Of a stretch of DNA of 64,000 nucleotides, positions 9,182 to 33,639 are shown one piece after another. The position numbers and the translations under genes were made by a program. The notes under the pieces were generated by a model that did no database searches, had not been told where the DNA came from, and was given only the letters and a program-made list of their open reading frames with translations. Position 1 is the stretch's first letter. Each line of letters begins with the position of its first letter. This DNA comes from Oligoflexales bacterium (GTDB taxonomy: Bacteria; Bdellovibrionota_B; Oligoflexia; Oligoflexales; JAPPIL01), in assembly GCA_965215515.1 (NCBI GenBank), contig OZ244057.1, positions 2,082,472-2,146,471 of the forward strand. The letters are read 5' to 3'.

Positions 9182-9208
9182 ACGTGCACCCCAAAGATCG
9201 CCTGCCCC

Positions 9209-12500: not shown

Positions 12501-12646
12501 GTCACGGTGATCACATCAAACTGAATGTTGGGGAAAACCTCGCGATTGATGTTGAACAACGACCAACCGCCAGCTAGAAAAACCATCACCGTAACGATGT
12601 TGACAAACGCACCCTGCTTGACAAAATATTCGATCAGCTTGTTCAT
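9527..12646 (-). CDS. RND efflux permease (AcrB/AcrD/AcrF family)
   Basis: GMLVDDAIVITEN, VVVNNAIV and RLRPIFLTT motifs; about 1039 aa from MNKLIEYF; ATGA overlap with the OMF gene. Confidence 0.93.
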   Translation of the reverse strand: MNKLIEYFVKQGAFVNIVTVMVFLAGGWSLFNINREVFPNIQFDVITVTTAYPGGAAESLERLVTNPLEQALREVDGIKKMTSYSVEGQSVIALQLDPDQATANEAKIDIDDVVSNLTTLPDGAEDPKVTLMESKRRPVIDVTLSGDVAETELRKAAKFLERELEKISEVAQVNFSGMRDLEIRIEAHVDKLKKFRLSLPELINAIQKNNINIPGGVSSAATDSSKEIIIRTIGEYQGVEDVEDTVIRANSLGRSIRIKDVCTVTMTFAKEKYRYRTNSSRSLNLRVLRKEHRDAITLVDKVRQTIDEQKHKINPAIEVGFINDVSYYVKRRLQVLTNNMVIGLMLVLVILALILPLPIALVTVFGIPFAFLAVVAIFHFGSISLNLVSMMGLIIVVGMLVDDAIVITENAQRFIEDGLSPAEAAIKGTQRIWAPVTASVMTTVIVFAPMMFMTGIFGKFIYFIPVAVVISLLVSLWECFFILPHHVASWVRTSKLRSGRSFFDTKIWRPLVEQPYLYVLNGVLKLRYLVILAALVLFSGMVYLAKEKVGFVLFPPGGVYMFSISLQAETGVSLDETERLVRPYEEYIASLPDSEMEDFISIIGRQGMHNPRGMKRGAEYAEIMVYLTDALTRERDTATIVEDVRSNVVQPEGLEVVSFRQVAGGPPVGKAVSIGVRGDEYVNILPAVQQLEEQLRAVEGVTDVENSHVTGKEEMRVRVKQEAAAAALLSLQDIGLAVRAAFEGIVATTIRGLDEEIDLRVTLQQEAQQGARALADIEIPNRRGQLIPLRKTASWDTVSGVSVYEHEDNQRQVTVTAEVDNKVTTSAVVNSFMREKVAAMAAQHPSLTFHFGGEDSDTKESMASLRVTFIFALFGIIFLLTLLFKNLYQPFIIATTIPLGIAATVFAFYVHGMTLSFLAMIGIIALAGVVVNNAIVFIDFINSARRRGLEKVAAVKDAAQRRLRPIFLTTITTSAGILPTAYGFGGLDPFVVPIALALGWGILGGALLTVLVLPAVVRISDDIAGIFWKIFRRRRASVA

Positions 12647-14190: not shown

Positions 14191-14227
14191 TCAGATTGAA
14201 CCAAAAATCGCCGTGGGTCAGCGACTA

Positions 14228-15406: not shown

Positions 15407-15421
15407 ATCTGTGGAAATTTT

Positions 15422-17821
15422 ATGAATAAAACTCAGCTTAGGTGGTTGTTATTTTTTGTATTTATTGCTGCGGCGGCAGCTTTCTTTGTATTTGATGTGC
15501 AGCAGTTTTTAAGTTTTGCTTATTTGAAGGCACGGCATCTTGAGTTTAGAGAGTATTATGTCCAGCACACGTTGTTAACTGCGTTGTTTTATTTTTGTGT
15601 TTATGTGTTGGTCACGTCTTTGTCGGTGCCTGGGGCGTTGGTGATGACGATTGCGGGCGGGGCGATTTTTGGGGTGGTGTATGGCACGATAATTGTGTCG
15701 TTTGCTTCGACGATAGGGGCAACGCTGGCGTTTTTGGCGGCGCGCTTTATTTTGCGGGATTTTGTGCAGAATAAATTCGCGACGAAGTTGCGGACTATCA
15801 ACGCTGGGATGGAGAAAAACGGTGTATTTTATTTGTTTACTTTGCGTTTAGTGCCTATCTTTCCGTTTTTTATGATTAATATGGTGATGGGCTTGACAAG
15901 AATTAAAACATGGCATTTTTTCTTTGTCAGTCAGGTCGCGATGTTGCTCGGCACGGTGTTGTATGTTAATGCAGGAGCACAGTTGAGCAAGTTGCAGTCG
16001 CCCGCGGATATTTTATCGTGGCAGTTGTTGTTGTCGTTCGCGCTTCTGGGTATTTTTCCTCTGCTCGCGAAAAAAATAGTTGACGTTGTGAAAGCGAGGC
16101 GTGTGTATCGTGGTTTTACGCGCCCGCGTCATTATGATTACAATCTAGTCGTCATTGGGGCGGGAGCGGCAGGCTTGGTCAGTGCTTATATCGGAGCGAC
16201 GGTGAAGGCGAAGACGCTGTTGATTGAGAGGCACAAGATGGGAGGTGATTGTCTCAATACGGGGTGTGTACCGAGCAAGGCACTGCTAAAGTCGGCACAA
16301 ATTGCCGCTTTACAGCACAAGGCACGACGGTATGGGTTTGCTAAAATCGAGTTGTCGTATCTCTTCAGTGAGGTGATGGAGCGGGTGCAGAGGGTGATTG
16401 CGAAGGTTGAGCCGCACGATTCAGTAGCAAGATACAGTGCCCTAGGAGTTGAGTGTCGGCAAGGTGAAGCAAGAATTATCTCGCCGTATGAGGTGCAGGT
16501 AAAGGAGCGAGAAAGCAAAGCTGCTTTTAGTAACGCTCGCTTGCTAGCTCGCTCCTCACACTCAGATGTGGAGAGCGAAGCGGAGCGAGAAAGCGGCAAA
16601 AAAGCCTGGCGGAGCGAAGCGGAGCGAGAAAGCGGCAAAAAAGCCTGGCGGAGCGAAGCGGAGCGAGAAAGCGGCAAAAAAGCCTGGCGGAGCGAAGCGG
16701 AGCGAGAAAGCGGCAAAAAAGCCTGGCGGAGCGAAGCGGAGCGAGTGGTCACGGCGCGCAACATCATTATTGCTAGCGGTGCAACTCCGTTTGTGCCACC
16801 GTTGGCGGGGTTGGAGCAGGTTGACTACTACACTGCCGACACGATTTGGAGTTTGCGTGAGAGACCGTCGTGTATGTTGGTGCTTGGTGGCGGGCCGATC
16901 GGTTGTGAGTTAGCGCAAGCTTTTACGCGGCTCAGCGTAAAGGTGGTGCAATTGGAGCAGGGAACACGGCTGTTGCCGCGTGAAGATGTGGAAGTGTCTG
17001 ATTTTATGATGCAGGTGTTTCGTGACGAAGGTATTGAGGTGCTAACGGAGCATCGGGCGTTAAGTTTTGGCAAAGAGGAGGGCGGGAGTTTTGTTGTTTG
17101 TCGGCATAAGGAGCAGGAGAAAAAGATAAAGTTTGATGTGGTGTTGCTAGCGTTGGGACGCAGAGCGACGGTAACTGGTTTTTGTGGCGAGGCTATGCAG
17201 TTAGATTTAACCGAGCGGGGTACGTTGCAGGTTAATGATTATTTGCAGACCAATTATCCTAACATTTATGCTTGTGGTGATGTTGTTGGGCCGTATCAGT
17301 TCACGCACATGGCTGCGCATCAAGCGTGGTATTGTGCCGTCAATGCTTTGTTCTCGCCTGTGAGTTTCAAAGTCAACTACAGGGTTGTTCCTTGGTGCAC
17401 CTTTACTGATCCAGAGGTGGCACATGTGGGGCTGAGTGTTGCTGAGGCAGAGCGACGTGGTATTGCTTATGAGGTGACGATGTATGGTCTGGATGATCTT
17501 GACCGTGCCATTGCTGATAGCGACGATCGTGGTTTTGTCAAGGTATTGACTGCACCGAAGAGGGACAGGGTGCTCGGTGCAACGATTGTTGGCGCACGTG
17601 CGGGTGAGTTGATTACTGAGTTCGTCAGTGCGATGCAGCATGGCATTGGTCTGAACAAAATCCTCGCCACGATTCATATCTATCCGACCTTTGCCGAAGC
17701 CAACAAGTACGCGGCAGGCAACTGGAAGAAGACGCATGCTTCTGCCCGTGTGCTTGCTTATCTTGAGAAGTTGCATAGCTTGCGGCGGGGGGCAAACGAA
17801 AGGCGAGCACATGGAAGATAA
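15422..17821 (+). CDS. TVP38/VTT-domain + pyridine nucleotide-disulfide oxidoreductase (LpdA/MerA-like) fusion
   Basis: N-terminal LRLVPIFPFFMIN (VTT), GAGAAG, redox CLNTGC, GGGPIG, YACGD and HIYPTFAE. No C-terminal Cys pair, so not MerA. Carries a 78-aa repeat insertion. Confidence 0.9.
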   Translation: MNKTQLRWLLFFVFIAAAAAFFVFDVQQFLSFAYLKARHLEFREYYVQHTLLTALFYFCVYVLVTSLSVPGALVMTIAGGAIFGVVYGTIIVSFASTIGATLAFLAARFILRDFVQNKFATKLRTINAGMEKNGVFYLFTLRLVPIFPFFMINMVMGLTRIKTWHFFFVSQVAMLLGTVLYVNAGAQLSKLQSPADILSWQLLLSFALLGIFPLLAKKIVDVVKARRVYRGFTRPRHYDYNLVVIGAGAAGLVSAYIGATVKAKTLLIERHKMGGDCLNTGCVPSKALLKSAQIAALQHKARRYGFAKIELSYLFSEVMERVQRVIAKVEPHDSVARYSALGVECRQGEARIISPYEVQVKERESKAAFSNARLLARSSHSDVESEAERESGKKAWRSEAERESGKKAWRSEAERESGKKAWRSEAERESGKKAWRSEAERVVTARNIIIASGATPFVPPLAGLEQVDYYTADTIWSLRERPSCMLVLGGGPIGCELAQAFTRLSVKVVQLEQGTRLLPREDVEVSDFMMQVFRDEGIEVLTEHRALSFGKEEGGSFVVCRHKEQEKKIKFDVVLLALGRRATVTGFCGEAMQLDLTERGTLQVNDYLQTNYPNIYACGDVVGPYQFTHMAAHQAWYCAVNALFSPVSFKVNYRVVPWCTFTDPEVAHVGLSVAEAERRGIAYEVTMYGLDDLDRAIADSDDRGFVKVLTAPKRDRVLGATIVGARAGELITEFVSAMQHGIGLNKILATIHIYPTFAEANKYAAGNWKKTHASARVLAYLEKLHSLRRGANERRAHGR
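16504..16745 (+). repeat. In-frame 234-bp palindromic/39-bp-unit insertion bounded by ggagcgag
   Basis: ggagcgag at 16504, 16582, 16621, 16660, 16699 and 16738; four identical units ggagcgagaaagcggcaaaaaagcctggcggagcgaagc (13 aa per unit, SEAERESGKKAWR). Confidence 0.97.
17724..17794 (+). repeat. 71-bp direct repeat, left copy (3' end of oxidoreductase gene)
   Basis: ggaagaagacgcatgcttctgcccgtg...cttgcggcggggggca is repeated at 18772-18844. Confidence 0.95.
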
Positions 17822-18743
17822 TTGGCGCACGTCACCTAATGCCCACAATGATTTTATGGCCGCTTTGCTGGAGACAGCCGACGATTGTCGCGGCCTGCTA
17901 GCCTTAGCCGTCGCCAAAAACAAAGTGGACGACGTACGAGAGAAGAGGGTGACGCGTTTGCCAGCTGATCATCCTGATTTTAGGCAGGTAGTACGCCATC
18001 TCGATGCGGTGCTTGGGATGAACGCAGGCGAGGCCACTGGTGGCGAGGAAGCTTATGAACATATCTACCTGCTCGAATTCAAGAGTAGTCTGAGCAAACA
18101 CTCGCTGTTGCGGCAGTTGCTGGGTTATATCTTGATTTTACTGCGTTTTTGTACATTAGTGACCCCTATCGTCATCTACACAGGTAAACGTCCGCTGCCC
18201 GCAGTTCGTAAACGGATACGTCCCCATGCCTGGTTACAAACACTCATCGCCAATCGGTGTGGTGTTAGCCTCACCTGTGTCGTAGTGAACATAGCTGAGG
18301 TCAAACGCACCACCCTGCTGCGCTATGCTCCCACAATTGCAGCGGGACTGTACCTCGCCAAACATATCTACCACTTGACTGAAGCACACATTGCCCAGTT
18401 CTTTCAGCTGGCCAACACTATGCCCAAGGTTTGGCGAGAGAAGATGGTTGAAAAGGGTTGCGTATATATCATAAAATGCGTGGAGGGCTACGATTGGCGG
18501 CGTTTGGAACGCATCGAACGCGAGGTAGTACCAGAGAGGAGGCGTGTAGTGGCACGGGTAGCTTATAGCCGCGAGGCGGCCGTAGCCGAGGGTAAAGCCG
18601 AGGGTAAAGCCGAGGGTAGAGCCGAGGGACTGGCAGAAGTTGCTCAGCGCATGCTTGTGGAAGGCATGGATATCGAGATCATCTGCCGCACAACTGGTCT
18701 CACGCGCAGAGAGCTGACACGACTCAAGAAAAAACGCGCCTAG
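17811..18743 (+). CDS. Rpn family PD-(D/E)XK nuclease (recombination-promoting nuclease/putative transposase)
   Basis: AHNDF N-terminus, HLDAV...LLEFKSS, RQLLGY, IVIYTG, AEGKAEGKAEGRAEG repeat and a MLVEGMDIEIICRTTGL tail. Confidence 0.85.
   Translation: MEDNWRTSPNAHNDFMAALLETADDCRGLLALAVAKNKVDDVREKRVTRLPADHPDFRQVVRHLDAVLGMNAGEATGGEEAYEHIYLLEFKSSLSKHSLLRQLLGYILILLRFCTLVTPIVIYTGKRPLPAVRKRIRPHAWLQTLIANRCGVSLTCVVVNIAEVKRTTLLRYAPTIAAGLYLAKHIYHLTEAHIAQFFQLANTMPKVWREKMVEKGCVYIIKCVEGYDWRRLERIEREVVPERRRVVARVAYSREAAVAEGKAEGKAEGRAEGLAEVAQRMLVEGMDIEIICRTTGLTRRELTRLKKKRA
18549..18743 (+). CDS. Putative intragenic small protein (RpnS-like antitoxin)
   Basis: aggagg at 18537-18542, 6 nt before an in-frame GTG at 18549; 64 aa covering the EG repeat and C-terminal helices. 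Confidence 0.55.
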   Translation: MARVAYSREAAVAEGKAEGKAEGRAEGLAEVAQRMLVEGMDIEIICRTTGLTRRELTRLKKKRA

Positions 18744-18771
18744 CAACCATTCTCACGTGTGCGGGGGCATG

Positions 18772-18844
18772 GGAAGAAGACGCATGCTTCTGCCCGTGTG
18801 CTTGCTTTTATCTTGAGAAGTTGCATAGCTTGCGGCGAGGGGCA
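18772..18844 (+). repeat. Direct repeat, right copy, retaining the ancestral stop (...GAD*)
   Basis: Copy of 17724-17794 with 2 extra T and 1 substitution. It is followed by gattag, whose stop overlaps the convergent DUF4340 stop. Confidence 0.93.
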
Positions 18845-18846
18845 GA

Positions 18847-20385
18847 TTAGCCCCCCTGTGGATCGGGGCTGGTGTCGCTGAGGGCAGAATCTTTACTCTT
18901 CTCATTGTCCACAGTGTAAGCTTCAAGTAGACTGCGCGCGGCGACGTATACTTGCTCGCTGTTATTGTGTGTTACGTAGTATTGTTCTTCGCTCTCAGCA
19001 TGGGCGTGGAAAGAGATTTCTAGTTTGTTAATTTTTTGTTGATGTCTATCTTCCGTTGCTTCGTCGCTGCCGTCTGCCGTTTCCTTGTCATCAAAGTTTT
19101 CTTTGTCTTCCAGCCATAAAGTTATACGGCGGGCAGGCGGTTTAGCGAGGGTTTCTGTCACTTCCTTACGACCGACAAACTCGATTGCTTCTGCGGTTTC
19201 TAGACTGTCGAGCAGCAGATCGACCGAGTCGTTAGGCATAGGCTTGTTTTCTTCGGGTAGTTTGCCTTCTTTATCAAGTGCGGCACTACGATACCAATCA
19301 TTATCAACGCGTTGATAAGTTTCGCCATCGATATCAAGCTCGATAACCTCTGCGGTAGTGAAGGTGAAGATGCTGTGGTCGCGAAAATTTTCGCTCAGAT
19401 CGCGCACCTTTTCTTCAAAACTAGCGGGTAAACCGAACACTAGCTTGTCAGGTGCAAACGCGGCCAGCAGCTCACCCCGATCACGTACGAAGGTCAATTC
19501 CTTGCTTTCACCAGAGCTGAACTCAAATACGGCACTCATGACAATCTTGTTTGCGGTATTGAATTTTTTGGTTAGTTCCGCTGCGGGTGTGTCGATAAAT
19601 TTCTCCGCTCGTACTTGATCGAATGCCTCGATATACTCGCGGACTTTCTGTTGTGCTGTTTTAAAAGGTTCAGGCTTGAGCAGCTGAAATTTTCCTCCCT
19701 GCCGTGCCACCTCGTATACTTGTGATTCACGATGCCAGAAGGTCACCCGTGACAACTTTTCCGCATCGAGGACGAGCAGCTGTTTGTCGCGAAAATTAAA
19801 CAGGCCTTTTTCGGTTGAGTTCAGTACATATTGGCTGCCGAGATACACTTGCTGTTGCTTTTGTTGTTTTGTTGATCCCTTTACTTGAAAATAAGTGCTA
19901 TAGCCCACGGGGGCATTGTTGCCCAAGCGCAGTTCGTAACTGCTACCATCCTCTGCCTGCAGGGTAATTACCCGCCGTGGCTCTTGCAAGCCAAACTCCT
20001 GTAACTCGATGTTCTCTGTCTCAGTCTTAACAACTTCTTCTTCGTATTTGTAATCGAGTACTGTCTTAATAAAATCGCTCACCTCACGCTCATCGGCAGC
20101 TGTCTCCAGCGGGGCGACGATGCGCCATACACCGTCGATCATCTCCAGTATTACTTGTTTTGGTATGTTTGCCACTTCCGTTTCAGCGACATCGTCTGTC
20201 TGGTCATCAGTATCCTTCTGGGCATGATCGAGCAGGGTAATTTTACGTATTTGCTTTTCGTCAAGTGTGGTGAGCTTGCTTGCCTCTTCCTTCTCTTTTT
20301 GTTCTGTTTTTGTTTGCCATTCGTCCCACGTAGCCAGACCACCGAGTGCGAGCAGCACTGCGGCAAGAATTAGTGGTGTGCGCAT
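18847..20385 (-). CDS. DUF4340-domain periplasmic protein
   Basis: N-terminal TM, W.IVAP...AD, FGLQEP, LRLGNNAPVG..TY and repeated FRDK/FRDH motifs; last gene of the ABC cluster. Confidence 0.75.
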   Translation of the reverse strand: MRTPLILAAVLLALGGLATWDEWQTKTEQKEKEEASKLTTLDEKQIRKITLLDHAQKDTDDQTDDVAETEVANIPKQVILEMIDGVWRIVAPLETAADEREVSDFIKTVLDYKYEEEVVKTETENIELQEFGLQEPRRVITLQAEDGSSYELRLGNNAPVGYSTYFQVKGSTKQQKQQQVYLGSQYVLNSTEKGLFNFRDKQLLVLDAEKLSRVTFWHRESQVYEVARQGGKFQLLKPEPFKTAQQKVREYIEAFDQVRAEKFIDTPAAELTKKFNTANKIVMSAVFEFSSGESKELTFVRDRGELLAAFAPDKLVFGLPASFEEKVRDLSENFRDHSIFTFTTAEVIELDIDGETYQRVDNDWYRSAALDKEGKLPEENKPMPNDSVDLLLDSLETAEAIEFVGRKEVTETLAKPPARRITLWLEDKENFDDKETADGSDEATEDRHQQKINKLEISFHAHAESEEQYYVTHNNSEQVYVAARSLLEAYTVDNEKSKDSALSDTSPDPQGG

Positions 20386-20390
20386 AAACT

Positions 20391-22034
20391 TCACAACGAC
20401 CTCCGTCTCAGCCAACTAACCACACCGCTGCCCATAAAAACGATGGGATAGAAGAAGCAGATCAGCTTTAGTATCAATTGGCTCATGCTTGAAGTTAGGG
20501 CAATCGAGCTTTTCTGCACGTCTTTGGGACGCAGTGAGATAAAATCTTCGTCTTTCAGGAGGAAGTTGGTCATGTTGACAAACATGTCGCGATGTTCGAC
20601 TGCTGCTTGTACTCCCTGGTTACGAGCAAAGTGGGATGAGCCAGTGACAATTAGGCGCACTTGCCTTTCCTCCGCGGTCGGTAGCGCTTTGTTGTCCACG
20701 TCTTTTGCCTCTTCTTTTTTGCTTTGTTCTGTACCTGCATCAGCCAGTTGTGGTGTCTTGGTTTTGCCTGTTGCCACGGCAATCACGGCGAATTGGCCTG
20801 CGGTCACTCGATCTTGTGTAATCTCACCGAGATCGGATTTGTCGGTAACGTTATCGACCTTGACGATTGTTGTGGAGGTCTTGGCCACTAATTCGACGTT
20901 CATCTTATGTTTGTTATCTTCTACCTTTGCTAGTGAGCGCACGTTAGGCATTAGCAGGGTCGCGGCACTTTGTCGTGCAAAGTCTTTGGTCACGCTATGA
21001 AAATCATCGAAGTCGGTCACCAGAGCGTTGTTTTGCCCTAGCAGCAGGGCGCGTGGATCATCGGGAGGCAGCAGTAGCAGGTCGTTGTTGATTTTAACGC
21101 CAAATTCTTCGGTGAATGCTGCAAGGTTATTCATTTTCGTTACCGCATCGAACATCACCAACAGCGCTCCACCGCGTTGCAAATAATTACGCAAAAAATT
21201 AATTTCTTCTTTGCGCAGATCGTAACGAGGCCCTGCCACCACCACTAAATCTGCATCAGCTGGCACTTTACCTGTCTCTAGCAACATCAGTGCTTCGGTG
21301 CTGTATTTGTTGTTTTCCATCTCCTGCACGACAAAGTCGTAGCCTAGGGGACTTTTTGCTCCCAGTTCACCCTCACCGTGCCCACGGGTGAAATAAACTT
21401 TCTTTGATTTGTCCTTCAGCACCTTGACCAGGGCGTTGGTAAGTTTTTCCTCTGTGAAGGTGGCGATACGTGTTTCCAGCTTGCCGCGTCGAAAAATTAC
21501 CGTGTTACCAGAGGTCAACTTGTCCGCCATCGCTTGTGTCGGTTTCTGGCGCGGGTCAAGCCAACTGACATTAAACTCTGCACCTTCTATCTCATATAGG
21601 GAGAGCAAATTCTTGAAATTATCTTTTGTTCCTTGGTCTTGAAACCAAGCTGTAATCCTGAGCGGTTCTGTGCTCTCCTTGACCTTGGCGATAACTTTCA
21701 ACGACTGGTCAGACAGGGTGTTGGTTTGCGAACGGGTCACGTCAAAGCTCTTGTTGAATCGTGCTCGGGATGACAACAGTGCCACTGCTACGATAATGGC
21801 GATGCCCAGCACTACTGTCAAACTTGAGCTTGCGCCAAACTTCGAGCCTTTACGCCGCAAGAATTTCTTGAAATTTTCGATATCCCACGAAATCCAGAAA
21901 ACTACTAGCGCCACCGCTAGCACTAGACTAGAACTACCCACCCAGACCAGCCCAGGGTAGGAAGACTTGACCGCGGCACCGATTGCCGCTACCAGCACGG
22001 CTAAAAAAGGCAAAATAAAAAGTCCTGACCTCAT
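20391..22034 (-). CDS. GldG-like ABC auxiliary component
   Basis: FDVTRSQTNTLS, VYFTRGHGE, VVAGPRYD, IVTGSSHF and N-terminal TMs. Confidence 0.85.
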   Translation of the reverse strand: MRSGLFILPFLAVLVAAIGAAVKSSYPGLVWVGSSSLVLAVALVVFWISWDIENFKKFLRRKGSKFGASSSLTVVLGIAIIVAVALLSSRARFNKSFDVTRSQTNTLSDQSLKVIAKVKESTEPLRITAWFQDQGTKDNFKNLLSLYEIEGAEFNVSWLDPRQKPTQAMADKLTSGNTVIFRRGKLETRIATFTEEKLTNALVKVLKDKSKKVYFTRGHGEGELGAKSPLGYDFVVQEMENNKYSTEALMLLETGKVPADADLVVVAGPRYDLRKEEINFLRNYLQRGGALLVMFDAVTKMNNLAAFTEEFGVKINNDLLLLPPDDPRALLLGQNNALVTDFDDFHSVTKDFARQSAATLLMPNVRSLAKVEDNKHKMNVELVAKTSTTIVKVDNVTDKSDLGEITQDRVTAGQFAVIAVATGKTKTPQLADAGTEQSKKEEAKDVDNKALPTAEERQVRLIVTGSSHFARNQGVQAAVEHRDMFVNMTNFLLKDEDFISLRPKDVQKSSIALTSSMSQLILKLICFFYPIVFMGSGVVSWLRRRSL

Positions 22035-22040
22035 AGTTTG

Positions 22041-22817
22041 TTATCTCCAGCGTTGCGAGTCCAAAACCACATTTGTAAAAAATAAAAACAAAGACGTGAA
22101 ACACATAAAATAGAAAATGTCTTTGATGGTAATCATGCCTTTCATCATGTTCTCGAGGTGTTGCATTGAGGCGAGGTATTTGAGTGTTTCTTCTGCCCAG
22201 CCGCCACCTGAGAGGTTAGGGGCGAGCCAGTTCAGTATCAGCAGCATGAACAGTCCGAACATGGTGAATAGGAAGGCGAGGAACTGGTTTTTGGTCATGG
22301 AGGAGATCCAAATGCCCAGTGCTAACTGCGAGCTGATGAGCAGAAACAGGCCGAGGTAGGCACTCAGGATAACGCCGACATCGGGGTTCCCGTATTTGAC
22401 AGTGAACAGCGGGAAGATAGTCGAAGCCAGCAACACCAGCGTCATCATCAGCAGTGCGGCGAGGTATTTACCCAAGACGATGTGTAGTGGTCTGATGGGT
22501 GCGGTGTGTAGCAAGCGAATCGAATGATTTTTGATTTCTTCCGAGAAAGAGGCCATTGTTACTGCGGGTACGATCAGAATCAAAATGAAGTGCAGGTTAT
22601 GGAACAGTGCGGTCAGCAGTTGTTCGAGGGTGGGTGCTTGCCCGCCCATTGCGGGGGCGCGTTGCTGCATTTCGAAGAAGGTTTGCATGAAGCTGTTAAA
22701 GAACACTCCCATAAAGGCGAGAAAGAAGAAGAAGATTGCCATGCCCTTCGGTGAAGCGAAGAAGGCTGCCAGATCACGGCGGGCAATTGTCCAGGTAACG
22801 CCAAAGCTGGGTCGCAT
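22041..22817 (-). CDS. ABC-2 type permease (GldF-like)
   Basis: IARRDL..FF.SP, SEEIKNHSIRLLHTAP and IVLGKY; multiple TMs. Confidence 0.88.
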   Translation of the reverse strand: MRPSFGVTWTIARRDLAAFFASPKGMAIFFFFLAFMGVFFNSFMQTFFEMQQRAPAMGGQAPTLEQLLTALFHNLHFILILIVPAVTMASFSEEIKNHSIRLLHTAPIRPLHIVLGKYLAALLMMTLVLLASTIFPLFTVKYGNPDVGVILSAYLGLFLLISSQLALGIWISSMTKNQFLAFLFTMFGLFMLLILNWLAPNLSGGGWAEETLKYLASMQHLENMMKGMITIKDIFYFMCFTSLFLFFTNVVLDSQRWR

Positions 22818-22832
22818 TTTTCCTCCCTAAAA

Positions 22833-23756
22833 TCAGTGTGTGACCTGGAAAAACACGTCTTCCAGGCTTTTGGTTTTGACATTCAGCTCGCGCAGACCGT
22901 AACCACCCTTGACTGCTTGCATAGCCACCTTATCTATGGTGTCATCGGGTGCGTCTTTGCGCAGGGCAAATTCGATCACGTCGGTGGAAGCGGCGCGTGG
23001 CTGGGTCAGGGCAGGGAGTGTCGTCAGTTCGTTAGCGAGCTGTTCCGCTTTTTCTCCCACTCGTAGGGTATAGACGCGGTCAGCGTCGAGCCGTTCAAGC
23101 AGTTCCTCGTATGTGCCTTCTTCGACAATCTTGCCCTTGTCGATGATGATGATTTTTTCGCACATCTGCTCTACTTCCGAGAGGATATGTGAGCTTAAGA
23201 TGATCGTGTGTTGTCCTGCCAATGATTTGATTAGCTCACGAATGTGCACGATTTGGTTGGGGTCAAGTCCTTCGGTTGGCTCGTCGAGCACCAGCACTTT
23301 TGGGTCATGTATTAGTGCTTGTGCTAGTGCCACTCGCTGTCGATAGCCTTTGGACAAGTTGCCTATGATTCGTCCGCCGACCTCGTGCAGTTCGAGTTTG
23401 GTAAACACCTCGTTCATCCGTCCTTGGATACGTTCTTTTGGCACACCTCGCAAGCATGCGGCGAAAACAACGTAGTCAGCCACTCGCATCTCGGCGTGTA
23501 GCGGCGGCACGTCAGGCAGGTAACCTAGCATGCTTTTTGCTTCCAGCGGAGCATCGGTGATATCGCAACCAAAAATGCGTGCATTGCCACTGTCTGCTCC
23601 GATACAGCCACAGAGAATGTCCATCGTTGTCGTCTTGCCAGCACCGTTAGCACCGAGAAAACCGACTATCTGCCCCTCTTCTACCTTGAAGCTGATGTCG
23701 GCCAATACCTGTACGCTACCGTAGGATTTCGACAACCCGTTGATTTCAATCATCAT
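22833..23756 (-). CDS. ABC transporter ATP-binding protein (GldA-like)
   Basis: GANGAGKTT, LSKGYRQRV, LVLDEPT and SSH. Confidence 0.93.
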   Translation of the reverse strand: MMIEINGLSKSYGSVQVLADISFKVEEGQIVGFLGANGAGKTTTMDILCGCIGADSGNARIFGCDITDAPLEAKSMLGYLPDVPPLHAEMRVADYVVFAACLRGVPKERIQGRMNEVFTKLELHEVGGRIIGNLSKGYRQRVALAQALIHDPKVLVLDEPTEGLDPNQIVHIRELIKSLAGQHTIILSSHILSEVEQMCEKIIIIDKGKIVEEGTYEELLERLDADRVYTLRVGEKAEQLANELTTLPALTQPRAASTDVIEFALRKDAPDDTIDKVAMQAVKGGYGLRELNVKTKSLEDVFFQVTH

Positions 23757-23904
23757 CACTCCCACCTGTCCCTGAAACGTCACTGAATAAGCAACAAGCG
23801 ACATTTTGACAAAACTTAACGTGCTTGTCTACCCCTTTATGCACATCCACCCTCCTGCCTTCGCGGTGAGCGTGTGCGGTTGGTGTATGTCACTGATGAT
23901 CTAC

Positions 23905-26170: not shown

Positions 26171-26517
26171 GTTCCCCTCCTACCTTGTAAAAGAAACCGC
26201 GTCTGCCTGCTGTTTCGCCAAATTAGCCGATAAGTTTAGTTTCTTACATAATTGATTGATATTACAGCAAAAATTAGAAGTCAATTGCCATCAGGCGGTG
26301 TGCCGACGACAGCAGCCTACCCGCACGGCAAACACAACCTCTACTGACCATTCTACCACACTCACCTGACCAAAACACATCATGTCGCCCAGTTTTTTCA
26401 GCTGACTAACACCCTGCCCGCAGTTTGGCAGAGAAGGCAAGGCTGAGGGGATGATGCTGGTAGATCAGAGCCTGAAGAGACCGCGCATGCCACACGAACC
26501 TACGCTGTCCGCAAATT

Positions 26518-26957
26518 TCAATCTGCCCCTCGCCGCAAGCTATGCAACTTCTCAAGATAAGCAAGCACACGGGCAGGAGCATGCGTCTTCTTCCAGTTGC
26601 CTGCCGCGTACTTGTTGGCTTCGGCAAAGGTCGGATAGATATGAATCGTGGCGAGGATTTTGTTCAGACCAATGCCATGCTGCATCGCACTGACGAACTC
26701 AGTAATCAACTCACCAGCACGTGCGCCAACAATCGTTGCACCGAACACCCTGTCCCTCTTCGGTGCAGTCAATACTTTGACAAAACCACGATCGTCGCTA
26801 TCAGCAATGGCACGGTCAAGATCATCCAGACCATAAAGCAATACCACGTCGCTCTGCCTCAGCAACACTCAGCCCCACATGTGCCACCTCTGGGTCAGTA
26901 AACGTACACCAAGGGACAACCCTGTAGTTGACTTTGAAACTCACAGGCGAAAACAAA
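26518..26957 (-). pseudogene. Inverted duplicate of the oxidoreductase 3' end (about 17347-17794)
   Basis: Near-identical, with several SNPs and a 14-bp frameshifting deletion; ends LRRGAD*. Confidence 0.92.
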
Positions 26958-27170
26958 AAAGTCTACCGCAAATTCACAGATGTTGAGTCCTGCGTGCCCG
27001 TAGTTCTGGCTATCGGTTATGCTGTTGCTATAGTTCTTTCGTTGCTGTGGTGTTTTTTGTAGGTAAATGATTACATACCCACTCTCTATTTTGTGATTTT
27101 CATTTTGTTACCTTGATTGTTAAGCTTCTCTCTAACATCACTCTTGTCCCTACCCATTTACCATTCGTCG

Positions 27171-28490
27171 CTATGTTTCTTTGCCACGTAGCTTCTCGAT
27201 CAAACACACCGTCTCCACGGCAACAGTGATGGTGCTGAGTAGCAAGCGTAAGATATAGGGTGCGTCGTCGCTATAGTTGTTGGGGTCGTCGAGCAGGTCG
27301 GTTTTGGGGTCAATTTTGCGATAGTAGCGTTCTACTATCCACTTCACTGGTGCATAGCCGCTGACTTGATATTGCCAAGTTTCAGCGGGAATGCCTGTGA
27401 CAGTGATGTCATCATTGTATTTGATACTTTGTTGATCTTTAGCTATCTTCATTTTAGTTACCAATAGGCTTGCAGGTGGTATGCGCTCTAAACGTGTCTC
27501 CTGGCCACGATACAAAATCTTCACCCCCGCGAGCTGTGGTTGCTGCTCATAACCGATATGCAACTCGTTGAACATAGTGCAGTAGTAGAGATGTTTTTTA
27601 ATAAAGGGACGATAGCTGGACAGTTTTATTTTATCAGAAGTAAAAGTTGCTTCTTTGCCTTTAATCAGCGATTGTTTGAGGCTACGACTCCATTTGATCT
27701 TTTTTTCGTTAAGCTCAATATGTTGATCGATATTTTTTACATTCAGCTGCTCACCTGCTAGTCGGTCGCGCTCACAGTTGTAAACACCGATCATCTCTGC
27801 CATGTTTGCCGCTACCATGCTGTGATCATAATTGTAAGCCCAGCCATCCCTATTTGTCTTCACACCACAGCTATACAGTGCAAAAATTCCCCCACCCCGC
27901 TTCTTATCGCCGAGCACGGGCAACTGCTCATAGTCACTATCGCGTTGATCGAGCCAATCACCATGCTTGTCAGGTGTAATTGTTTGCCAGTTGATGTTTG
28001 TGATTGAACTGTAAGCGGATATTTTTTGTAGTTTCTGTTCGCGACTGAGATAGTCACCGATATCATGGTAGTAAATTTCTGCCTCTTTAGTTAGTCTTCT
28101 GGGGCCTTTGACTAAAAAGCTGATCGCTACTGGTGTTCTGCTGTTTTGTCCGAATATTTTTCCACCCTCCTTGCGCGCTAACTCTCCTTTAGTACGTTGG
28201 TTACCGCGCAGATGAAAAGAATAGATGGCATCGAATTCTTCAACTAAGCATCGCCTTAGCCCTTGTGTGCTACGTTCATCAAGCATAGAGGCATTATGGA
28301 CAAAGCCTATAATACCGCCGCTGTCTCCAATTCTATCGCTCGCCCAGCGAATGGCTTTAATGTAGGAGTCGAGCAAAGCGCGCTTAAGTGTGGCATTTAA
28401 CTTAGCCATGTAGCTCTCTTGCACTCGCTTTCGTAAATGTGGATACACCGTGTTTTTGTTAGCATCGTTTTCTGATTTTTGCCCCACTGA
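27171..28490 (-). pseudogene. Type ISP restriction-modification enzyme remnant (C-terminal MTase/TRD part)
   Basis: SVGQKSENDAN, SYIKAIRWASDRI, LRGNQRT.GE..RKEGGKIFG..SRTP, YRPF, LHIGYE and WIVERY. Truncated just after the expected NPPY motif by acrB-derived DNA. Confidence 0.8.
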
Positions 28491-29591
28491 GGAAGATTTT
28501 ATTAGTATTATTGGTCGGCAAGGCATGCATAATCCGCGTGGGATGAAACGTGGGGCTGAGTATGCGGAGATTATGGTGTATTTAACGGATGCTTTGACGC
28601 GTGAACGTGACACGGCCACTATCGTTGAGGATGTACGCAGTAATGTTGTGCAGCCAGAAGGTTTGGAGGTGGTAAGTTTCAGGCAGGTGGCGGGCGGGCC
28701 GCCTGTGGGCAAGGCGGTCAGTATCGGTGTGCGTGGCGATGAGTATGTGAATATTTTGCCTGCGGTGCAGCAGTTAGAGGAACAGTTGCGTGCCGTTGAA
28801 GGTGTGACTGATGTCGAGAACAGTCATGTAACTGGCAAAGAGGAGATGCGTGTGCGAGTCAAGCAAGAGGCAGCTGCGGCTGCGCTGTTGTCGTTGCAGG
28901 ACATTGGCTTGGCGGTGCGTGCGGCGTTTGAAGGTATTGTGGCAACGACTATTCGTGGTCTCGATGAAGAAATAGATTTACGTGTCACATTGCAGCAAGA
29001 AGCACAGCAAGGAGCACAGGCGTTAGCTGATATTGAGATTCCTAATCGTCGTGGTCAGCTTATTCCGTTACGGAAGACTGCAAGTTGGGATACTGTCAGT
29101 GGGGTATCGGTTTATGAGCATGAAGACAATCAACGACAGGTGACGGTTACCGCGGAAGTTGACAACAAGGTGACCACTTCCGCCGTAGTGAATAGTTTTA
29201 TGCGCGAGAAGGTTGCCGCGATGGCAGCACAGCATCCTTCCCTCACTTTTCATTTTGGCGGTGAGGATAGCGATACTAAAGAGAGCATGGCATCGTTGCG
29301 GGTAACTTTTATTTTTGCCTTGTTTGGCATTATCTTCCTTCTAACATTGTTGTTTAAGAATTTATACCAGCCGTTTATCATCGCAACTACCATTCCGTTG
29401 GGTATTGCCGCAACTGTTTTTGCTTTCTATGTGCATGGCATGACGCTGAGTTTTTTGGCGATGATCGGCATTATTGCCTTAGCTGGTGTGGTGGTCAACA
29501 ATGCTATTGTGTTCATTGATTTTATCAATAGTGCACGGCGGCGTGGTTTGGAGAAGGTGGCTGCTGTCAAAGATGCCGCACAGCGACGTTT
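28491..29591 (+). pseudogene. 1,101-bp inverted duplicate of an internal acrB segment (9759-10859)
   Basis: The translation is identical to acrB from EDFISII to AAQRR except GARALAD to GAQALAD; no own start. Confidence 0.95.
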
Positions 29592-29737
29592 CCTCGTCTA
29601 ATCCACCTATTAACATTAGGTTCTTTATACAACTAGCTGAAACTACAGTAAAAAAAAACGAGAAAATTATCCCAACCAGGTATTATATCTGTTCATCATC
29701 GTATCATATTTATCTTACAGATTAAGAGCTTGCCTAA

Positions 29738-29761
29738 GGTTATGGTAAGTTTGACTGTGGT
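29738..29761 (+). repeat. 24-bp direct repeat left of the Rpn array
   Basis: ggttatggtaagtttgactgtggt; 23/24 match to 33616-33639. Confidence 0.8.
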
Positions 29762-29844
29762 TATGTTGGGAAATTTGGCCGCATTTGTTAGCCAAGTACA
29801 CCAGCCTCGTGTTAAAATATCGAGCACAGCATGACAGGGTGAAC

Positions 29845-30927
29845 ATGATTGGGCGACGAAGACGCATAGGGCAGAAAAGACAGCGCCACAAGGCTGCCAA
29901 AGCCCGTCACTCCCACCCTCATGACAGCGTCTTCAAGACAATCTTCAAGCGTCCCGAACACTGCCGTGCCTTGCTGCAGGTCTTGCTTTCCCCTAGCTTC
30001 TACGCCATCTTCAATTGGCCCGCGCTGCAGATCACCGAAAGCACCGCAGCGGGAAGGAAGGGACAGGAACGCAGAGCTGACATCGTACTGGAAGTGCCGT
30101 TGTGGCCTTCCAAAGCCCGTGTCATCATCACTATCATCTTGGAGCACAAGAGTTATCGTGACAACGACACCATCCTGCAGATGCTGGGCTATTACAACGA
30201 GATCGCCCAACAGACGGGCGGCATCATCCTCCCCATCATCGTCACCTGTGGCAAGGACAAGAGAGCAGTTATCCCCTCCGATTACCTTAGTTGGGCACTG
30301 CAAAGGCAGGGTGCACCCGAAGAGTTGAGGCGGCAACTGAAGAAAATTGCCAATTTTGCTTGTCCTTTAGTGAACTTACACGATTTATCCTACCGTCGCA
30401 TGCGCCGCGGAGGCGAGGTGGTGAGCTTGGCGTTGTTCGGCATACGTAACTACTGGGATATGGACGAAGAGGTAGTGGTCAAGATTCTCAAGAAGGCACG
30501 CCTGTTGCCACAACAGGAGCGAGAGTTTATGCTCAATGTGTTAATGGACTATTACGAATGTGCCGATAAGGGGTACGACGTGAGGGGGTTTGCGGAGATT
30601 GAACGTAAGCGTTTTCCACACCTGAAGGAGGAAGAGAGACTGATGCCAGAGATGGAATTTGGCCTTGATAGAGCGAGACAAGAGGGCATACGGCAGGGTA
30701 TGCGCAAGGGCAAGCGGCAAGGTATCGAGCAGGGTATCGAGCAGGGTATCGAGCAGGGTATCGAGCAGGGTATCGAGCAGGGTATGCGCAAGGGCGTAGA
30801 GCAAAAGCAGCGGGATGTTGTCGCGCGGATGTTGGCGAGAGGTCTGCCTGACAAGCAGATCTGTGACGTTACACAGGTTAGCACAAAAGAGCTAGCTGAC
30901 ATTAAGCGCGAGCTGCAAAAAAGCTGA
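29845..30927 (+). CDS. Rpn family nuclease, tandem copy 1 (5 GIEQ units)
   Basis: HPHDSVFK, RRADIV...ILEHKS, QMLGYY, EG/GIEQ repeats and a MLARGLPDKQICDVTQVS tail. Confidence 0.9.
   Translation: MIGRRRRIGQKRQRHKAAKARHSHPHDSVFKTIFKRPEHCRALLQVLLSPSFYAIFNWPALQITESTAAGRKGQERRADIVLEVPLWPSKARVIITIILEHKSYRDNDTILQMLGYYNEIAQQTGGIILPIIVTCGKDKRAVIPSDYLSWALQRQGAPEELRRQLKKIANFACPLVNLHDLSYRRMRRGGEVVSLALFGIRNYWDMDEEVVVKILKKARLLPQQEREFMLNVLMDYYECADKGYDVRGFAEIERKRFPHLKEEERLMPEMEFGLDRARQEGIRQGMRKGKRQGIEQGIEQGIEQGIEQGIEQGMRKGVEQKQRDVVARMLARGLPDKQICDVTQVSTKELADIKRELQKS
30643..30927 (+). CDS. Putative intragenic RpnS-like protein, copy 1
   Basis: aaggagg at 30625-30631 upstream of the in-frame ATG 30643 (MPEMEFGLDRARQEG...). 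Equivalent starts lie at 31901 and 33135. Confidence 0.55.
   Translation: MPEMEFGLDRARQEGIRQGMRKGKRQGIEQGIEQGIEQGIEQGIEQGMRKGVEQKQRDVVARMLARGLPDKQICDVTQVSTKELADIKRELQKS
30721..30780 (+). repeat. 12-bp VNTR (ggtatcgagcag, GIEQ) x5; x3 at 31979-32014; x6 at 33213-33284
   Basis: Direct count in the sequence. Confidence 0.97.
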
Positions 30928-31102
30928 TCGTCAAGTAGCTCACAAATTTGCCCATCAAGTATGATACACAGTGATTCCTGAGTTCCGTGAGCAAAGCGAA
31001 TACTTATCGCGGCTGCCTGAGTGAGGTAGTCCGCGAGTGCATTTGTTAGCCAAGTACACCAGCCTCGTGTTAAAATATCGAACACAGCATGACAAGGTGA
31101 AC

Positions 31103-32161
31103 ATGACTGGGCGACGAAGACGCATAGGGCGGAAGAGACAGCGCCGCAAGGCTGCCAAAGCCCGTCACTCCCACCCTCATGACAGCGTCTTCAAGACAAT
31201 CTTCAAGCGTCCCGAACACTGCCGTGCCTTGCTACAGGTCTTGCTTTCCCCTAGCTTCTACGCCATCTTCAATTGGCCCGCGCTGCAGATCACCGAAAGC
31301 ACCGCAGCGGGAAGGAAGGGACAGGAACGCAGAGCTGACATCGTACTGGAAGTGCCGTTGTGGCCTTCCAAAGCCCGTGTCATCATCACTATCATCTTGG
31401 AGCACAAGAGTTACCGTGACAACGACACCATCCTGCAGATGCTGGGCTATTACAACGAGATCGCCCAACAGACAGGCGGCATCATCCTCCCCATCATCGT
31501 CACCTGTGGCAAGGACAAGAGAGCAGTTATCCCCTCCGATTACCTTAGTTGGGCACTGCAAAGGCAGGGTGCACCCGAAGAGTTGAGGCGGCAACTGAAG
31601 AAAATTGCCAATTTTGCTTGTCCTTTAGTGAACTTACACGATTTATCCTACCGTCGCATGCGCCGCGGAGGCGAGGTGGTGAGCTTGGCGTTGTTCGGCA
31701 TACGTAACTACTGGGATATGGACGAGGAGGTAGTGGTCAAGATTCTCAAGAAGGCACGCCTGTTGCCACAACAGGAGCGAGAGTTTATGCTCAATGTGTT
31801 AATGGACTACTACGAATGTGCCGATAAGGGGTACGACGTGAGGGGGTTTGCGGAGATTGAACGTAAGCGTTTTCCACACCTGAAGGAGGAAGAAAGACTG
31901 ATGCCAGAGATGGAATTTGGCCTTGATAGAGCGAGACAAGAGGGCATACGGCAGGGTATGCGCAAAGGCAAGCGGCAAGGTATCGAGCAAGGTATCGAGC
32001 AAGGTATCGAGCAGGGTATGCGCAAGGGCGTAGAGCAAAAGCAGCGGGATGTTGTCGCGCGGATGTTGGCGAGAGGTCTGCCTGACAAGCAGATCTGTGA
32101 CGTTACACAGGTTAGCACAAAAGAGCTAGCTGACATTAAGCGCGAGCTGCAAAAAAGCTGA
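31103..32161 (+). CDS. Rpn family nuclease, tandem copy 2 (3 GIEQ units)
   Basis: Near-identical to copy 1; the stops are 1,234 bp apart. Confidence 0.9.
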   Translation: MTGRRRRIGRKRQRRKAAKARHSHPHDSVFKTIFKRPEHCRALLQVLLSPSFYAIFNWPALQITESTAAGRKGQERRADIVLEVPLWPSKARVIITIILEHKSYRDNDTILQMLGYYNEIAQQTGGIILPIIVTCGKDKRAVIPSDYLSWALQRQGAPEELRRQLKKIANFACPLVNLHDLSYRRMRRGGEVVSLALFGIRNYWDMDEEVVVKILKKARLLPQQEREFMLNVLMDYYECADKGYDVRGFAEIERKRFPHLKEEERLMPEMEFGLDRARQEGIRQGMRKGKRQGIEQGIEQGIEQGMRKGVEQKQRDVVARMLARGLPDKQICDVTQVSTKELADIKRELQKS

Positions 32162-32336
32162 TCGTCAAGTAGCTCACAAATTTGCCCATCAAGTATGATA
32201 CACAGTGATTCCTGAGTTCCGTGAGCAAAGCGAATACTTATCGCGGCTGCCTGAGTGAGGTAGTCCGCGAGTGCATTTGTTAGCCAAGTACACCAGCCTC
32301 GTGTTAAAATATCGAACACAGCATGACAAGGTGAAC

Positions 32337-33431
32337 ATGACTGGGCGACGAAGACGCATAGGGCGGAAGAGACAGCGCCGCAAGGCTGCCAAAGCCCGTC
32401 ACTCCCACCCTCATGACAGCGTCTTCAAGACAATCTTCAAGCGTCCCGAACACTGCCGTGCCTTGCTACAGGTCTTGCTTTCCCCTAGCTTCTACACCAT
32501 CTTCAATTGGCCCGCGCTGCAGATCACCGAAAGCACCGCAGCGGGAAGGAAGGGACAGGAACGCAGAGCTGACATCGTACTGGAAGTGCCGTTGTGGCCT
32601 TCCAAAGCCCGTGTCATCATCACTATCATCTTGGAGCACAAGAGTTACCGTGACAACGACACCATCCTGCAGATGCTGGGCTATTACAACGAGATCGCCC
32701 AACAGACAGGCGGTATAATCCTTCCCATCATCGTCACCTGTGGCAAGGACAAGAGAGCAGTTATCCCCTCCGATTACCTTAGTTGGGCACTGCAAAGGCA
32801 GGGTGCACCCGAAGAGTTGAGGCGGCAACTGAAGAAAATTGCCAATTTTGCTTGTCCTTTAGTGAACTTACACGATTTATCCTACCGTCGCATGCGCCGC
32901 GGAGGCGAGGTGGTGAGCTTGGCGTTGTTCGGCATACGTAACTACTGGGATATGGACGAAGAGGTAGTGGTCAAGATTCTCAAGAAGGCACGCCTGTTGC
33001 CACAACAGGAGCGAGAGTTTATGCTCAATGTGTTAATGGACTACTACGAATGTGCCGATAAGGGGTACGACGTGAGGGGGTTTGCGGAGATTGAACGTAA
33101 GCGTTTTCCACACCTGAAGGAGGAAGAGAGACTGATGCCAGAGATGGAATTTGGCCTTGATAGAGCGAGACAAGAGGGCATACGGCAGGGTATGCGCAAA
33201 GGCAAGCGGCAAGGTATCGAGCAGGGTATCGAGCAGGGTATCGAGCAGGGTATCGAGCAGGGTATCGAGCAAGGTATCGAGCAGGGTATGCGCAAGGGCG
33301 TAGAGCAAAAGCAGCGGGATGTCGTCGCGCGGATGTTGGCGAGAGGTATGCCTGACAAGCAGATCTGTGACGTTACACAGGTTAGCACAAAAGAGCTAGC
33401 TGACATTAAGCATGAGCTGCAAAAAAGCTGA
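32337..33431 (+). CDS. Rpn family nuclease, tandem copy 3 (6 GIEQ units)
   Basis: Near-identical; differs at FYTIF, GMPD and KHELQ. Confidence 0.9.
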   Translation: MTGRRRRIGRKRQRRKAAKARHSHPHDSVFKTIFKRPEHCRALLQVLLSPSFYTIFNWPALQITESTAAGRKGQERRADIVLEVPLWPSKARVIITIILEHKSYRDNDTILQMLGYYNEIAQQTGGIILPIIVTCGKDKRAVIPSDYLSWALQRQGAPEELRRQLKKIANFACPLVNLHDLSYRRMRRGGEVVSLALFGIRNYWDMDEEVVVKILKKARLLPQQEREFMLNVLMDYYECADKGYDVRGFAEIERKRFPHLKEEERLMPEMEFGLDRARQEGIRQGMRKGKRQGIEQGIEQGIEQGIEQGIEQGIEQGMRKGVEQKQRDVVARMLARGMPDKQICDVTQVSTKELADIKHELQKS

Positions 33432-33615
33432 TCGTCAGGTAGCTCACAAATTTGCCCATCAAGTATGATACACAGTGATTCCTGAGTTCCGTGGGCAGGG
33501 CGCTTAATTTAATTTTTTGAGCGACAGAAAGCCTGATTTTGCGGTGTTTTGTCTGTCTTCCCGAAAGCCTCCCCGCGTGCCAAAAACCTCTACCATCGAA
33601 TTGATACTGACTTAT

Positions 33616-33639
33616 GGTTATGGTAAGTTTGACAGTGGT
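33616..33639 (+). repeat. 24-bp direct repeat right of the Rpn array
   Basis: ggttatggtaagtttgacagtggt. Confidence 0.8.

Follow-up and report, generated by a model that had tools for sequence, protein, structure and literature searches.

Copies of nearby DNA that are sealed in inverted orientation into a break are known from several organisms, and they are the closest described counterparts of the locus reported here: two inverted gene fragments, one from an AcrB-family pump gene (acrB) and one from an oxidoreductase gene, on either side of a Type ISP restriction-modification remnant in an Oligoflexales bacterium. The window, i.e. the whole stretch of DNA that was analysed, comprises 64,000 nucleotides (positions 2,082,472-2,146,471 of a single-contig 2.18-Mb genome); coordinates given below are window positions unless they are marked as genome positions. 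We refer to the source genes (9.5-17.8 kb) as the A locus and to the copies (26.5-29.6 kb) as the B pieces; the oxidoreductase copy is called o', the acrB copy a, the Type ISP remnant T, and an ABC-transporter/DUF4340 block Y. In Salmonella, tandem-inversion duplications (associated with the names of Kugelberg and Roth) are said to begin as a snap-back inverted duplication, which is then simplified by asymmetric deletions. Those structures consist of three tandem copies under dosage selection, whereas the present locus has two distant arms of unequal age with a foreign island in the middle.

For yeast and human, both templated inverted insertions and fold-back inverted duplications have been described at double-strand breaks or stalled forks (PMC11724301, PMC7467729, PMC3907307). 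Our locus resembles templated insertions of the type known from break-induced replication mediated by microhomology (MMBIR) and fork stalling and template switching (FoSTeS): inverted, cis-proximal copies would be sealed into a break or deletion with little or no homology at the junctions and with a spacer between the arms. Their source lies 7-18 kb off on the same replicon, and homology at the T|a joint amounts to 0-1 nt. The differences are the size of the patches (0.44 and 1.1 kb here, as against tens of bp for most patches in yeast amplicons), the bacterial host, and the fact that the mechanism is deduced from the end product. Inversions with inverted duplications at staggered breakpoints are known from Drosophila (Ranz et al. 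2007; PMC1885836). The oxidoreductase pair is similar in its geometry: one arm keeps its upstream continuity, the other has its gene-end side turned towards the inverted segment, the new junction is where homology stops, and the ABC block is inverted with respect to a sister genome. Unlike in Drosophila, however, the duplication is present at one breakpoint only, and the acrB piece, both of whose flanks are foreign, is not explained by such an inversion.

A third comparison concerns the Rpn proteins (YhgA-like, PF04754). In E. coli, RpnA acts as a non-specific endonuclease, nicking or cutting DNA, and increases recombination that does not depend on RecA; the 3'-OH ends can prime a polymerase, with joining by primer-template switching, and Kingston et al. 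proposed a role in the assembly of genome islands via microhomology-mediated joining (PMC5350276). According to another view, Rpn proteins form a toxin/antitoxin system (PMC10400941). In the present locus, Rpn genes or their remnants are found at or near every outer junction, and the published activity would yield joints of this kind; yet the experiments in E. coli relied on overexpression and on conjugal DNA and did not concern inverted copying of cis-proximal sequence. Here the association is positional.

Two inverted fragments of unequal age

Inverted pairs were sought by a repeat search in the window and by BLAST of the window against its own genome; gene identities are based on a Pfam scan of the open reading frames (ORFs) of the window. 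Both searches agree on two inverted pairs. Pair 1 relates 9759-10859 to 28491-29591 (1101 nt, 1 mismatch), and pair 2 relates 17347-17794 to 26524-26957 (448 and 434 nt, respectively, with 10 mismatches and one 14-bp deletion in the B piece). The deletion sits between 26835 and 26836 and breaks the reading frame. The inner gap amounts to 6487 bp at the A locus (10860-17346) and to 1533 bp at the B locus (26958-28490). According to self-BLAST, the B pieces have no further copy beyond their source in the 2.18-Mb genome. Chance cannot account for repeats this long and this identical; as two reverse-complementary copies with an identity far above chance, they constitute an intragenomic segmental inverted duplication.

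The two pieces differ in age: with 1/1101 against 10/434 differences, divergence is 25-fold higher in the oxidoreductase pair (Fisher p = 2.5e-5). Equal age and a continuous source, as expected of both pieces if they stem from a single event, were not found, although an assumption of gene conversion could rescue a single origin. The explanation that we favour, and to which we give an even chance of being correct, is that two separate RecA-independent break-repair events used inverted copies of sequence lying 7-18 kb to the left as patches for an eroding defence island. Two serial events require the fewest steps, and they account for the difference in age, for the foreign DNA on both sides of the acrB copy and for the point at which o' ends.

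The initial annotation had described both pieces with this position, order and orientation, the replacement of an inner segment of about 6.5 kb by about 1.5 kb with a Type ISP remnant, one amino-acid change in the acrB copy, several single-nucleotide polymorphisms (SNPs), a 14-bp deletion and a GAD* end predating the Rpn insertion in the oxidoreductase piece, and a difference in apparent age. All of these points hold: Pfam places a Type_ISP_C domain in 27171-28712, the SNPs number 10, and the end of the B piece matches the uninterrupted end of the gene and not position 17794. The elements of the locus are listed below in the order of the window.

9759-10859, minus strand: acrB source segment, about codons 617-982 of an intact 1059-aa AcrB-family gene (9527-12706), with the derived codon CGG (Arg) at 10332
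17347-17794, plus strand: oxidoreductase source segment, i.e. the 3' end (dimerisation domain) of a VTT-domain/pyridine-nucleotide-disulphide oxidoreductase gene (15422-17821, 799 aa)
17795-18771, plus strand: single Rpn-like insertion, ORF at about 17811-18743, with 73-bp direct repeats on either side
18849-23841, minus strand: ABC-transporter/DUF4340 block Y, with the DUF4340 stop (TTA, 18847-18849) at its left end
26303-26480, plus strand: decayed Rpn-like remnant, comprising a piece of the nuclease domain, an EGKAEG repeat, 'MMLVDQ' and an internal deletion; its 3' end points toward o'
26520-26957, minus strand: o', copy of the oxidoreductase 3' end (pseudogene piece), with 10 SNPs, 8 of them synonymous, and the 14-bp deletion
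26958-27080, no strand: DNA without assigned origin, 123 bp, 43% GC; its first ~18 nt are weakly similar to the next bases of the oxidoreductase gene (about 9/17)
27081-27170, minus strand: spacer between Type ISP and OLD genes plus the first 8 OLD codons, OLD start at 27104, premature TAG
27171-28490, minus strand: Type ISP restriction-modification remnant, 439 codons, ending directly after the NPPY methyltransferase motif
28491-29591, plus strand: fragment a, internal acrB copy with unrelated DNA on both sides and the ancestral codon CAG at 29017-29019
29592-29761, no strand: AT-rich unique spacer, 33.5% GC, whose last 24 bp (29738-29761) recur at 33616-33639
29762-33615, plus strand: Rpn array of three near-identical Rpn (PF04754) genes

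Source and copy in related genomes

Two genomes of the same genus, G001 and G002, with nucleotide identities of ~77-79%, served as outgroups; their size is about 3 Mb, compared to 2.18 Mb here. Both possess a single copy each of acrB and of the oxidoreductase gene, in the arrangement of the A locus. In G002, the spacing is the same (6.5 kb) and synteny extends from about window position 7830 to 17794; G001 shares the oxidoreductase gene and its upstream neighbour. Because the relatives have single copies in the A arrangement, the A locus represents the working genes in their conserved context, and the B pieces are derived fragments.

Around these genes, the order of larger blocks is less stable. 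G002 shows the order ABC block, oxidoreductase (minus strand) ... acrB (plus strand), with the hydrolase gene further on, and the corresponding order here is ABC-pilin-o'-T-a-hydrolase. The orientation of the ABC block varies among the three genomes, and genes adjoining the pilin cluster in G001 or the hydrolase gene in G002 map to scattered sites in our genome. Downstream of DUF4340, the DNA of both relatives is unrelated to 26958-27180. GC skew was considered as a marker of recent inversion and rejected; it is weak and dominated by gene strand.

The acrB copy

To judge by its sequence, the acrB copy is very young. Its sole difference from the source is an A at 29018, opposite 10332 of the A copy, so that the fragment encodes Gln (CAG) where the full gene encodes Arg (CGG). 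At this site, copy a agrees with both outgroups, which have CAG as well; the change thus took place on the lineage of the working gene, and copy a has acquired 0 changes of its own in 1101 nt. The mismatch lies in the middle of the fragment, and the outermost 100 nt at each edge are identical. An ACR_tran domain is detected in both acrB pieces, but the B ORF covers only profile positions 593-963 of 1021 (Pfam). The ORF at 28450-29601 thereby falls short of a functional AcrB/RND pump, which has the full 12 transmembrane segments in about 1000-1050 aa.

The flanks of copy a are on both sides unrelated to those of acrB. As both are foreign, the footprint of a staggered-break inversion cannot apply to this piece: a segment from inside the gene was simply inserted at the break that truncated the Type ISP gene. 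Microhomology, which the initial annotation had raised, was scored at one of the four joints, T|a, with the G002 Type ISP gene as a proxy of the parental sequence; it amounts to 0-1 nt.

A Type ISP/OLD defence island

Judged by homology, the middle of the B locus is an internal fragment of a defence island and not filler. The intact island of G002 (L011:3146-13978) encodes, on one strand, an Rpn protein, an 879-aa SMC/AAA_21 ATPase, a 1570-aa Type ISP enzyme and a 673-aa OLD-family nuclease. The stump in our genome corresponds to residues 994-1304 and 1432-1563 of this 1570-aa enzyme (76-81% identity). About 128 aa between the two retained stretches have been lost without a change of frame, and the stump has no other copy in the genome. 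A functional Type ISP enzyme unites an Mrr-like nuclease, a helicase, a coupler, an N6-methyltransferase and a target-recognition domain in one polypeptide, which the stump does not. Its frame is cut directly after the NPPY motif, exactly where the acrB fragment begins. On the other side, the OLD frame starts at 27104 and meets a TAG at codon 6; G002 has the OLD-like_TOPRIM/AAA_15 gene there. The DNA of the island has a GC content of 43-44%, compared to 49-52% around it. The spacer together with the first OLD codons is ~92% identical to G002 (L011:11900-11979), and the adjacent Type ISP coding DNA only 76-81%.

The oxidoreductase copy and the ABC junction

The 116-aa fragment ORF contains a Pyr_redox_dim domain (Pfam), of which o' represents the last part only. 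Copy o' extends 4 nt beyond the aligned pair, to 26520 ('GATT'), which is the same as the uninterrupted end kept at 18842-18848. In other words, o' bears the uninterrupted gene end (…GGGGCAGATT) that is preserved at 18839-18848 past the Rpn insertion; the original end of the oxidoreductase gene, GAD-TAG, is preserved at 18839-18850. The single Rpn-like gene is bracketed by 73-bp direct repeats (17722-17794 and 18773-18845). At the site equivalent to 17741, o' and both outgroups have C, and the working gene and both 73-bp repeats have T, from which it follows that the Rpn insertion at 17795 is younger than o'. The order of events is therefore that o' was made first, followed by the Pro-to-Ser change in the working gene and then by the Rpn insertion.

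Homology between the A and B copies stops at GATT, i.e. at the overlap of the oxidoreductase stop codon (TAG, 18848-18850) with the DUF4340 stop codon (TTA, 18847-18849); the two convergent stops overlap as ATTAG (18847-18850), without an intergenic spacer. The homology of block Y to G001 and G002 begins exactly at 18849, synteny with both relatives is broken at this point on both sides, and the DNA past this junction differs in all three genomes, which identifies the o|Y point as a lineage-specific rearrangement joint. A later copy would end within 2 nt of this joint only by coincidence, and o' and the joint are therefore most simply explained by one event: o' probably arose together with the oxidoreductase|ABC junction. 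Compared to G002, block Y is inverted here relative to the acrB-oxidoreductase block. This geometry fits a local inversion or inverted duplication that would leave an inverted duplication of ~450 bp at one breakpoint.

A hairpin terminator that halted copying at the oxidoreductase|ABC junction was considered and rejected, because the predicted fold is no better than that of shuffled sequences (z = 0.19); nothing notable was observed in the predicted folding of the other source ends. BLAST revealed no significant match to the missing 6.5 kb in 26958-27170 or 29592-29784, and for the stretch 26958-27080 neither the A block nor the genome gave a significant match. In the search for relatives of the oxidoreductase, all matches have an identity of at most 63%. 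Five synonymous third-position differences between the working gene and o' are packed at 17353-17410; this may be where a segment imported by recombination, or a tract of gene conversion, has its boundary.

Rpn genes and a second inverted copy

The 2.18-Mb genome contains about 23 PF04754-like copies, and each outer junction of the locus adjoins an Rpn gene or remnant. The remnant at 26303-26480 lies between the pilin promoter region and o' and abuts the stop-codon end of o'; the source end of the oxidoreductase gene carries a single Rpn gene; and the acrB fragment ends 170 bp short of the triple Rpn array. In sequence, the remnant comes closest to the single Rpn-like gene (17811-18743): blastn aligns 75 nt to 18372-18443 at 77% (E = 5e-10), and blastx matches the protein with E = 1e-6. 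The initial annotation had placed the pieces beside the Rpn array, which they indeed adjoin, but the array is bracketed by a 24-bp target repeat of its own (29738-29761 and 33616-33639) that begins 146 bp past the acrB piece. The single Rpn genes at genome positions 229638, 280083, 1749482 and 2100540 are each enclosed by direct repeats with a length of 70-309 bp.

A second locus has a comparable structure. Genome positions 236166-237091 are an inverted copy of 243180-244554 with an internal deletion of 442 bp (L025:4166-5091 and 11180-12554). The copy comprises the end of a 1050-aa pilin-like gene and a 372-aa gene, and it is located 185 bp upstream of an Rpn gene (237276-238283). The SNPs cluster near the junctions; 11 are synonymous and 12 non-synonymous, a ratio that ordinary decay predicts. 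In the relatives, the 372-aa gene does not lie next to htpG. Across the genome, local low-copy duplicates occur at the flanks of 8/20 Rpn loci, compared to 34/400 random loci (p = 2.6e-4), and inverted duplicates of at least 200 bp at 3/20 compared to 6/400. Genome positions 874486-875914 were considered as a further fold-back example and rejected, as they contain two divergent paralogous lipoprotein genes. These genes (280 and 275 aa) have near-identical 5' parts and upstream DNA, which form a 550-bp inverted repeat with a 325-bp spacer.

Rpn nucleases are a plausible source of the breaks. One may go further and suppose, although we regard this as unlikely, that they cut near their own genes and that repair by primer-template switching leaves two kinds of footprint. 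These would be direct 'target duplications' of 24-309 bp around Rpn genes and inverted, cis-proximal patches of 0.4-1.4 kb. If this were true, the present locus and the one at 236-244 kb would preserve natural traces of a joining without RecA, which Kingston et al. observed only under overexpression, and Rpn genes would be active agents in the erosion and assembly of defence islands. The locus would then also provide a testable footprint of in vivo activity for a widespread family whose role is debated (transposase, recombination promoter, or toxin/antiphage protein).

A proposed two-step history

Our favoured explanation of two serial repair events can be spelled out as follows. At the start, a Type ISP/OLD island would have been situated between the pilin cluster and the hydrolase gene, from where it would have been eroded from both sides. 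In the older event, the OLD side would have been deleted and 438 bp of the oxidoreductase 3' end left in its place, before the Rpn insertion at 17795; most simply, this event would be the rearrangement that made the oxidoreductase|ABC junction, be it an inversion of the ABC-pilin segment or an inverted duplication. In the second, very recent event, the Type ISP gene would have been cut after the NPPY motif, with the loss of its first ~993 codons and of the DNA upstream, and the gap would have been filled with 1101 bp from inside acrB. Where it can be judged, the joint homology of 0-1 nt points to RecA-independent joining or primer-template switching and not to homologous recombination. The repeats, with their polarity and relative ages, the nature of the island and the places of the junctions are shown by the sequence; we infer that the patches were copied during break repair, that the first event made the o|Y junction, and that the breaks came from the many Rpn nucleases of this genome. 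The fragments themselves are pseudogene scraps without a function of their own.

Several observations weigh against this history. Taken together, the fragments have the collinearity of a single inverted copy of 9.76-17.8 kb, an arrangement that two events would produce by chance in 1 of 2 cases if the mechanism forces inversion, and otherwise in 1 of 8. In G002, the intact block is situated between the ABC operon and the hydrolase gene and is oriented like the fragments here, and the ancestral adjacencies that an inversion predicts were not found in G001 or G002, whose gene order is heavily scrambled. The differences of o' are a further difficulty: 8 of its 10 SNPs are synonymous third-position changes, compared to ~38% expected if a dead fragment decays in place and the working gene is under constraint (p = 0.009), and 5 of the 10 fall within the inner 64 bp (p = 0.009), where local divergence reaches about 8%. 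Most of the divergence of o' thus looks allelic rather than the outcome of in-place decay. Either the working gene was replaced up to about 17410 from a diverged strain, or o' derives from a copy that was once functional. The excess of synonymous SNPs thereby calls for an extra assumption, namely allelic import or a copy that still worked for a period. Moreover, microhomology was judged at one joint only. As for the Rpn link, it is circumstantial, positional and partly post hoc: two of the three Rpn loci with inverted duplicates of at least 200 bp belong to the present finding, so that the independent support consists of one locus.

Alternative explanations

The initial annotation had offered two origins, an old inverted duplication with later gene conversion of the acrB part, or serial capture of nearby DNA. 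Our evidence leans towards serial capture, and a single duplication now seems somewhat unlikely. According to this alternative, at least 9.76-18.85 kb, perhaps from 7.66 kb onwards, were duplicated in inverted orientation, e.g. by fold-back break-induced replication, and one copy then collapsed: the island would have entered the redundant copy, deletions would have spared 438 and 1101 bp, and RecA-dependent conversion would have kept acrB identical. By the synteny of G002, the collapsed copy may even be the original location. Order and orientation of the fragments are exactly as such a duplication predicts, and the ABC-oxidoreductase-acrB-hydrolase order of G002 matches the order of the fragments here; but the number of steps is large, comprising a duplication of 8-11 kb, the insertion of the island, at least two deletions and selective conversion. 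The mostly synonymous differences of o' suit a copy that was functional for some time, yet conversion would have to homogenise all 1101 nt of acrB, the edges included, and at the same time spare the other piece, with its 2.3% divergence and its 14-bp deletion. Since the one difference of copy a is ancestral, no conversion from A to B has occurred since that change. If the left copy were the new one, o|Y would be a novel joint, which would explain why homology stops there; on the other hand, the inner 6.5 kb left no trace in 26958-27080 or 29592-29761. The locus at 236-244 kb is a clear example of a collapsed inverted copy with an internal deletion, and remodelling by deletion is reportedly also the fate of the Salmonella tandem-inversion duplications; a genome that has shrunk to 2.18 Mb is, however, unlikely to retain a redundant copy of 8-11 kb for long.

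Horizontal import of the fragments, as flanks of the island or by natural transformation and illegitimate integration, is very unlikely in our view. It would account for the allelic-looking differences of o' (8/10 synonymous, about 8% local divergence in the inner 64 bp), and copy a carries the ancestral Gln allele; this copy is nevertheless identical to the resident gene at 1100/1101 sites, whereas the nearest other genomes reach 77-79%. The island looks mobile, with its GC content of 43-44% compared to 49-52%, but the stop-codon end of o' faces away from it and thus was not carried along as an island flank. No donor was found in the plasmid, metagenome-contig and genome-contig collections: the plasmid collection yielded distant Type ISP genes only, and exact 25-mers of the Type ISP and oxidoreductase pieces were not present in metagenome or genome contigs.

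An assembly artefact or a strain chimera is more improbable still. No independent assembly with the chimeric ORFs or these sequences was found, and the two ORFs had no exact-product match. Yet the 14-bp deletion, the 10 SNPs and the pre-insertion end of o', as well as the ancestral allele of the acrB copy, are not obtainable from reads of the source; each fragment has unique flanks on both sides, and the single 2.18-Mb contig resolves many longer repeats. Least probable of all is a working switch, in which the 1.1-kb acrB arms would flip 17.6 kb (with the pump truncated and restored) or the 0.44-kb arms the ABC-pilin segment: although a 1.1-kb inverted pair with 99.9% identity is a good RecA substrate and the ABC block does vary in orientation among the three genomes, the Pfam scan found no recombinase domain among the ORFs of 17.7-29.6 kb, no site-specific core is apparent, a flip at acrB would yield a pump without its last ~77 residues plus an orphan tail, and the shorter pair is broken by a deletion and SNPs in a locus whose remainder is decaying.

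Significance and minor observations

The locus is of an ordinary kind: a defence island in decay, with rearrangement scars that consist of pseudogene fragments. Its interest is modest and lies in a dated two-step history and in the consistent proximity of Rpn genes, in the setting of a genome whose Rpn flanks are seven-fold enriched for local duplications. It provides an example of a Type ISP and OLD island that was dismantled and into which inverted copies of nearby housekeeping genes were pasted. For annotation, the 116-aa, 513-aa and 383-aa ORFs of this locus should be marked as pseudogene fragments, and the 1.1-kb near-perfect inverted repeat is a likely source of inversion isomers and of assembly ambiguity.

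Two further features of the window lie outside the duplicated pieces or apart from them. Arrays of a 39-bp repeat are present in inverted orientation at 9319-9526, just past the acrB stop codon, and at 16573-16745, in frame inside the oxidoreductase gene; both are located outside the duplicated pieces. The cumulative GC-skew minimum of the chromosome falls inside the window (genome position about 2.13 Mb, window position about 47 kb); the skew is weak and gives only a hint of a nearby origin.

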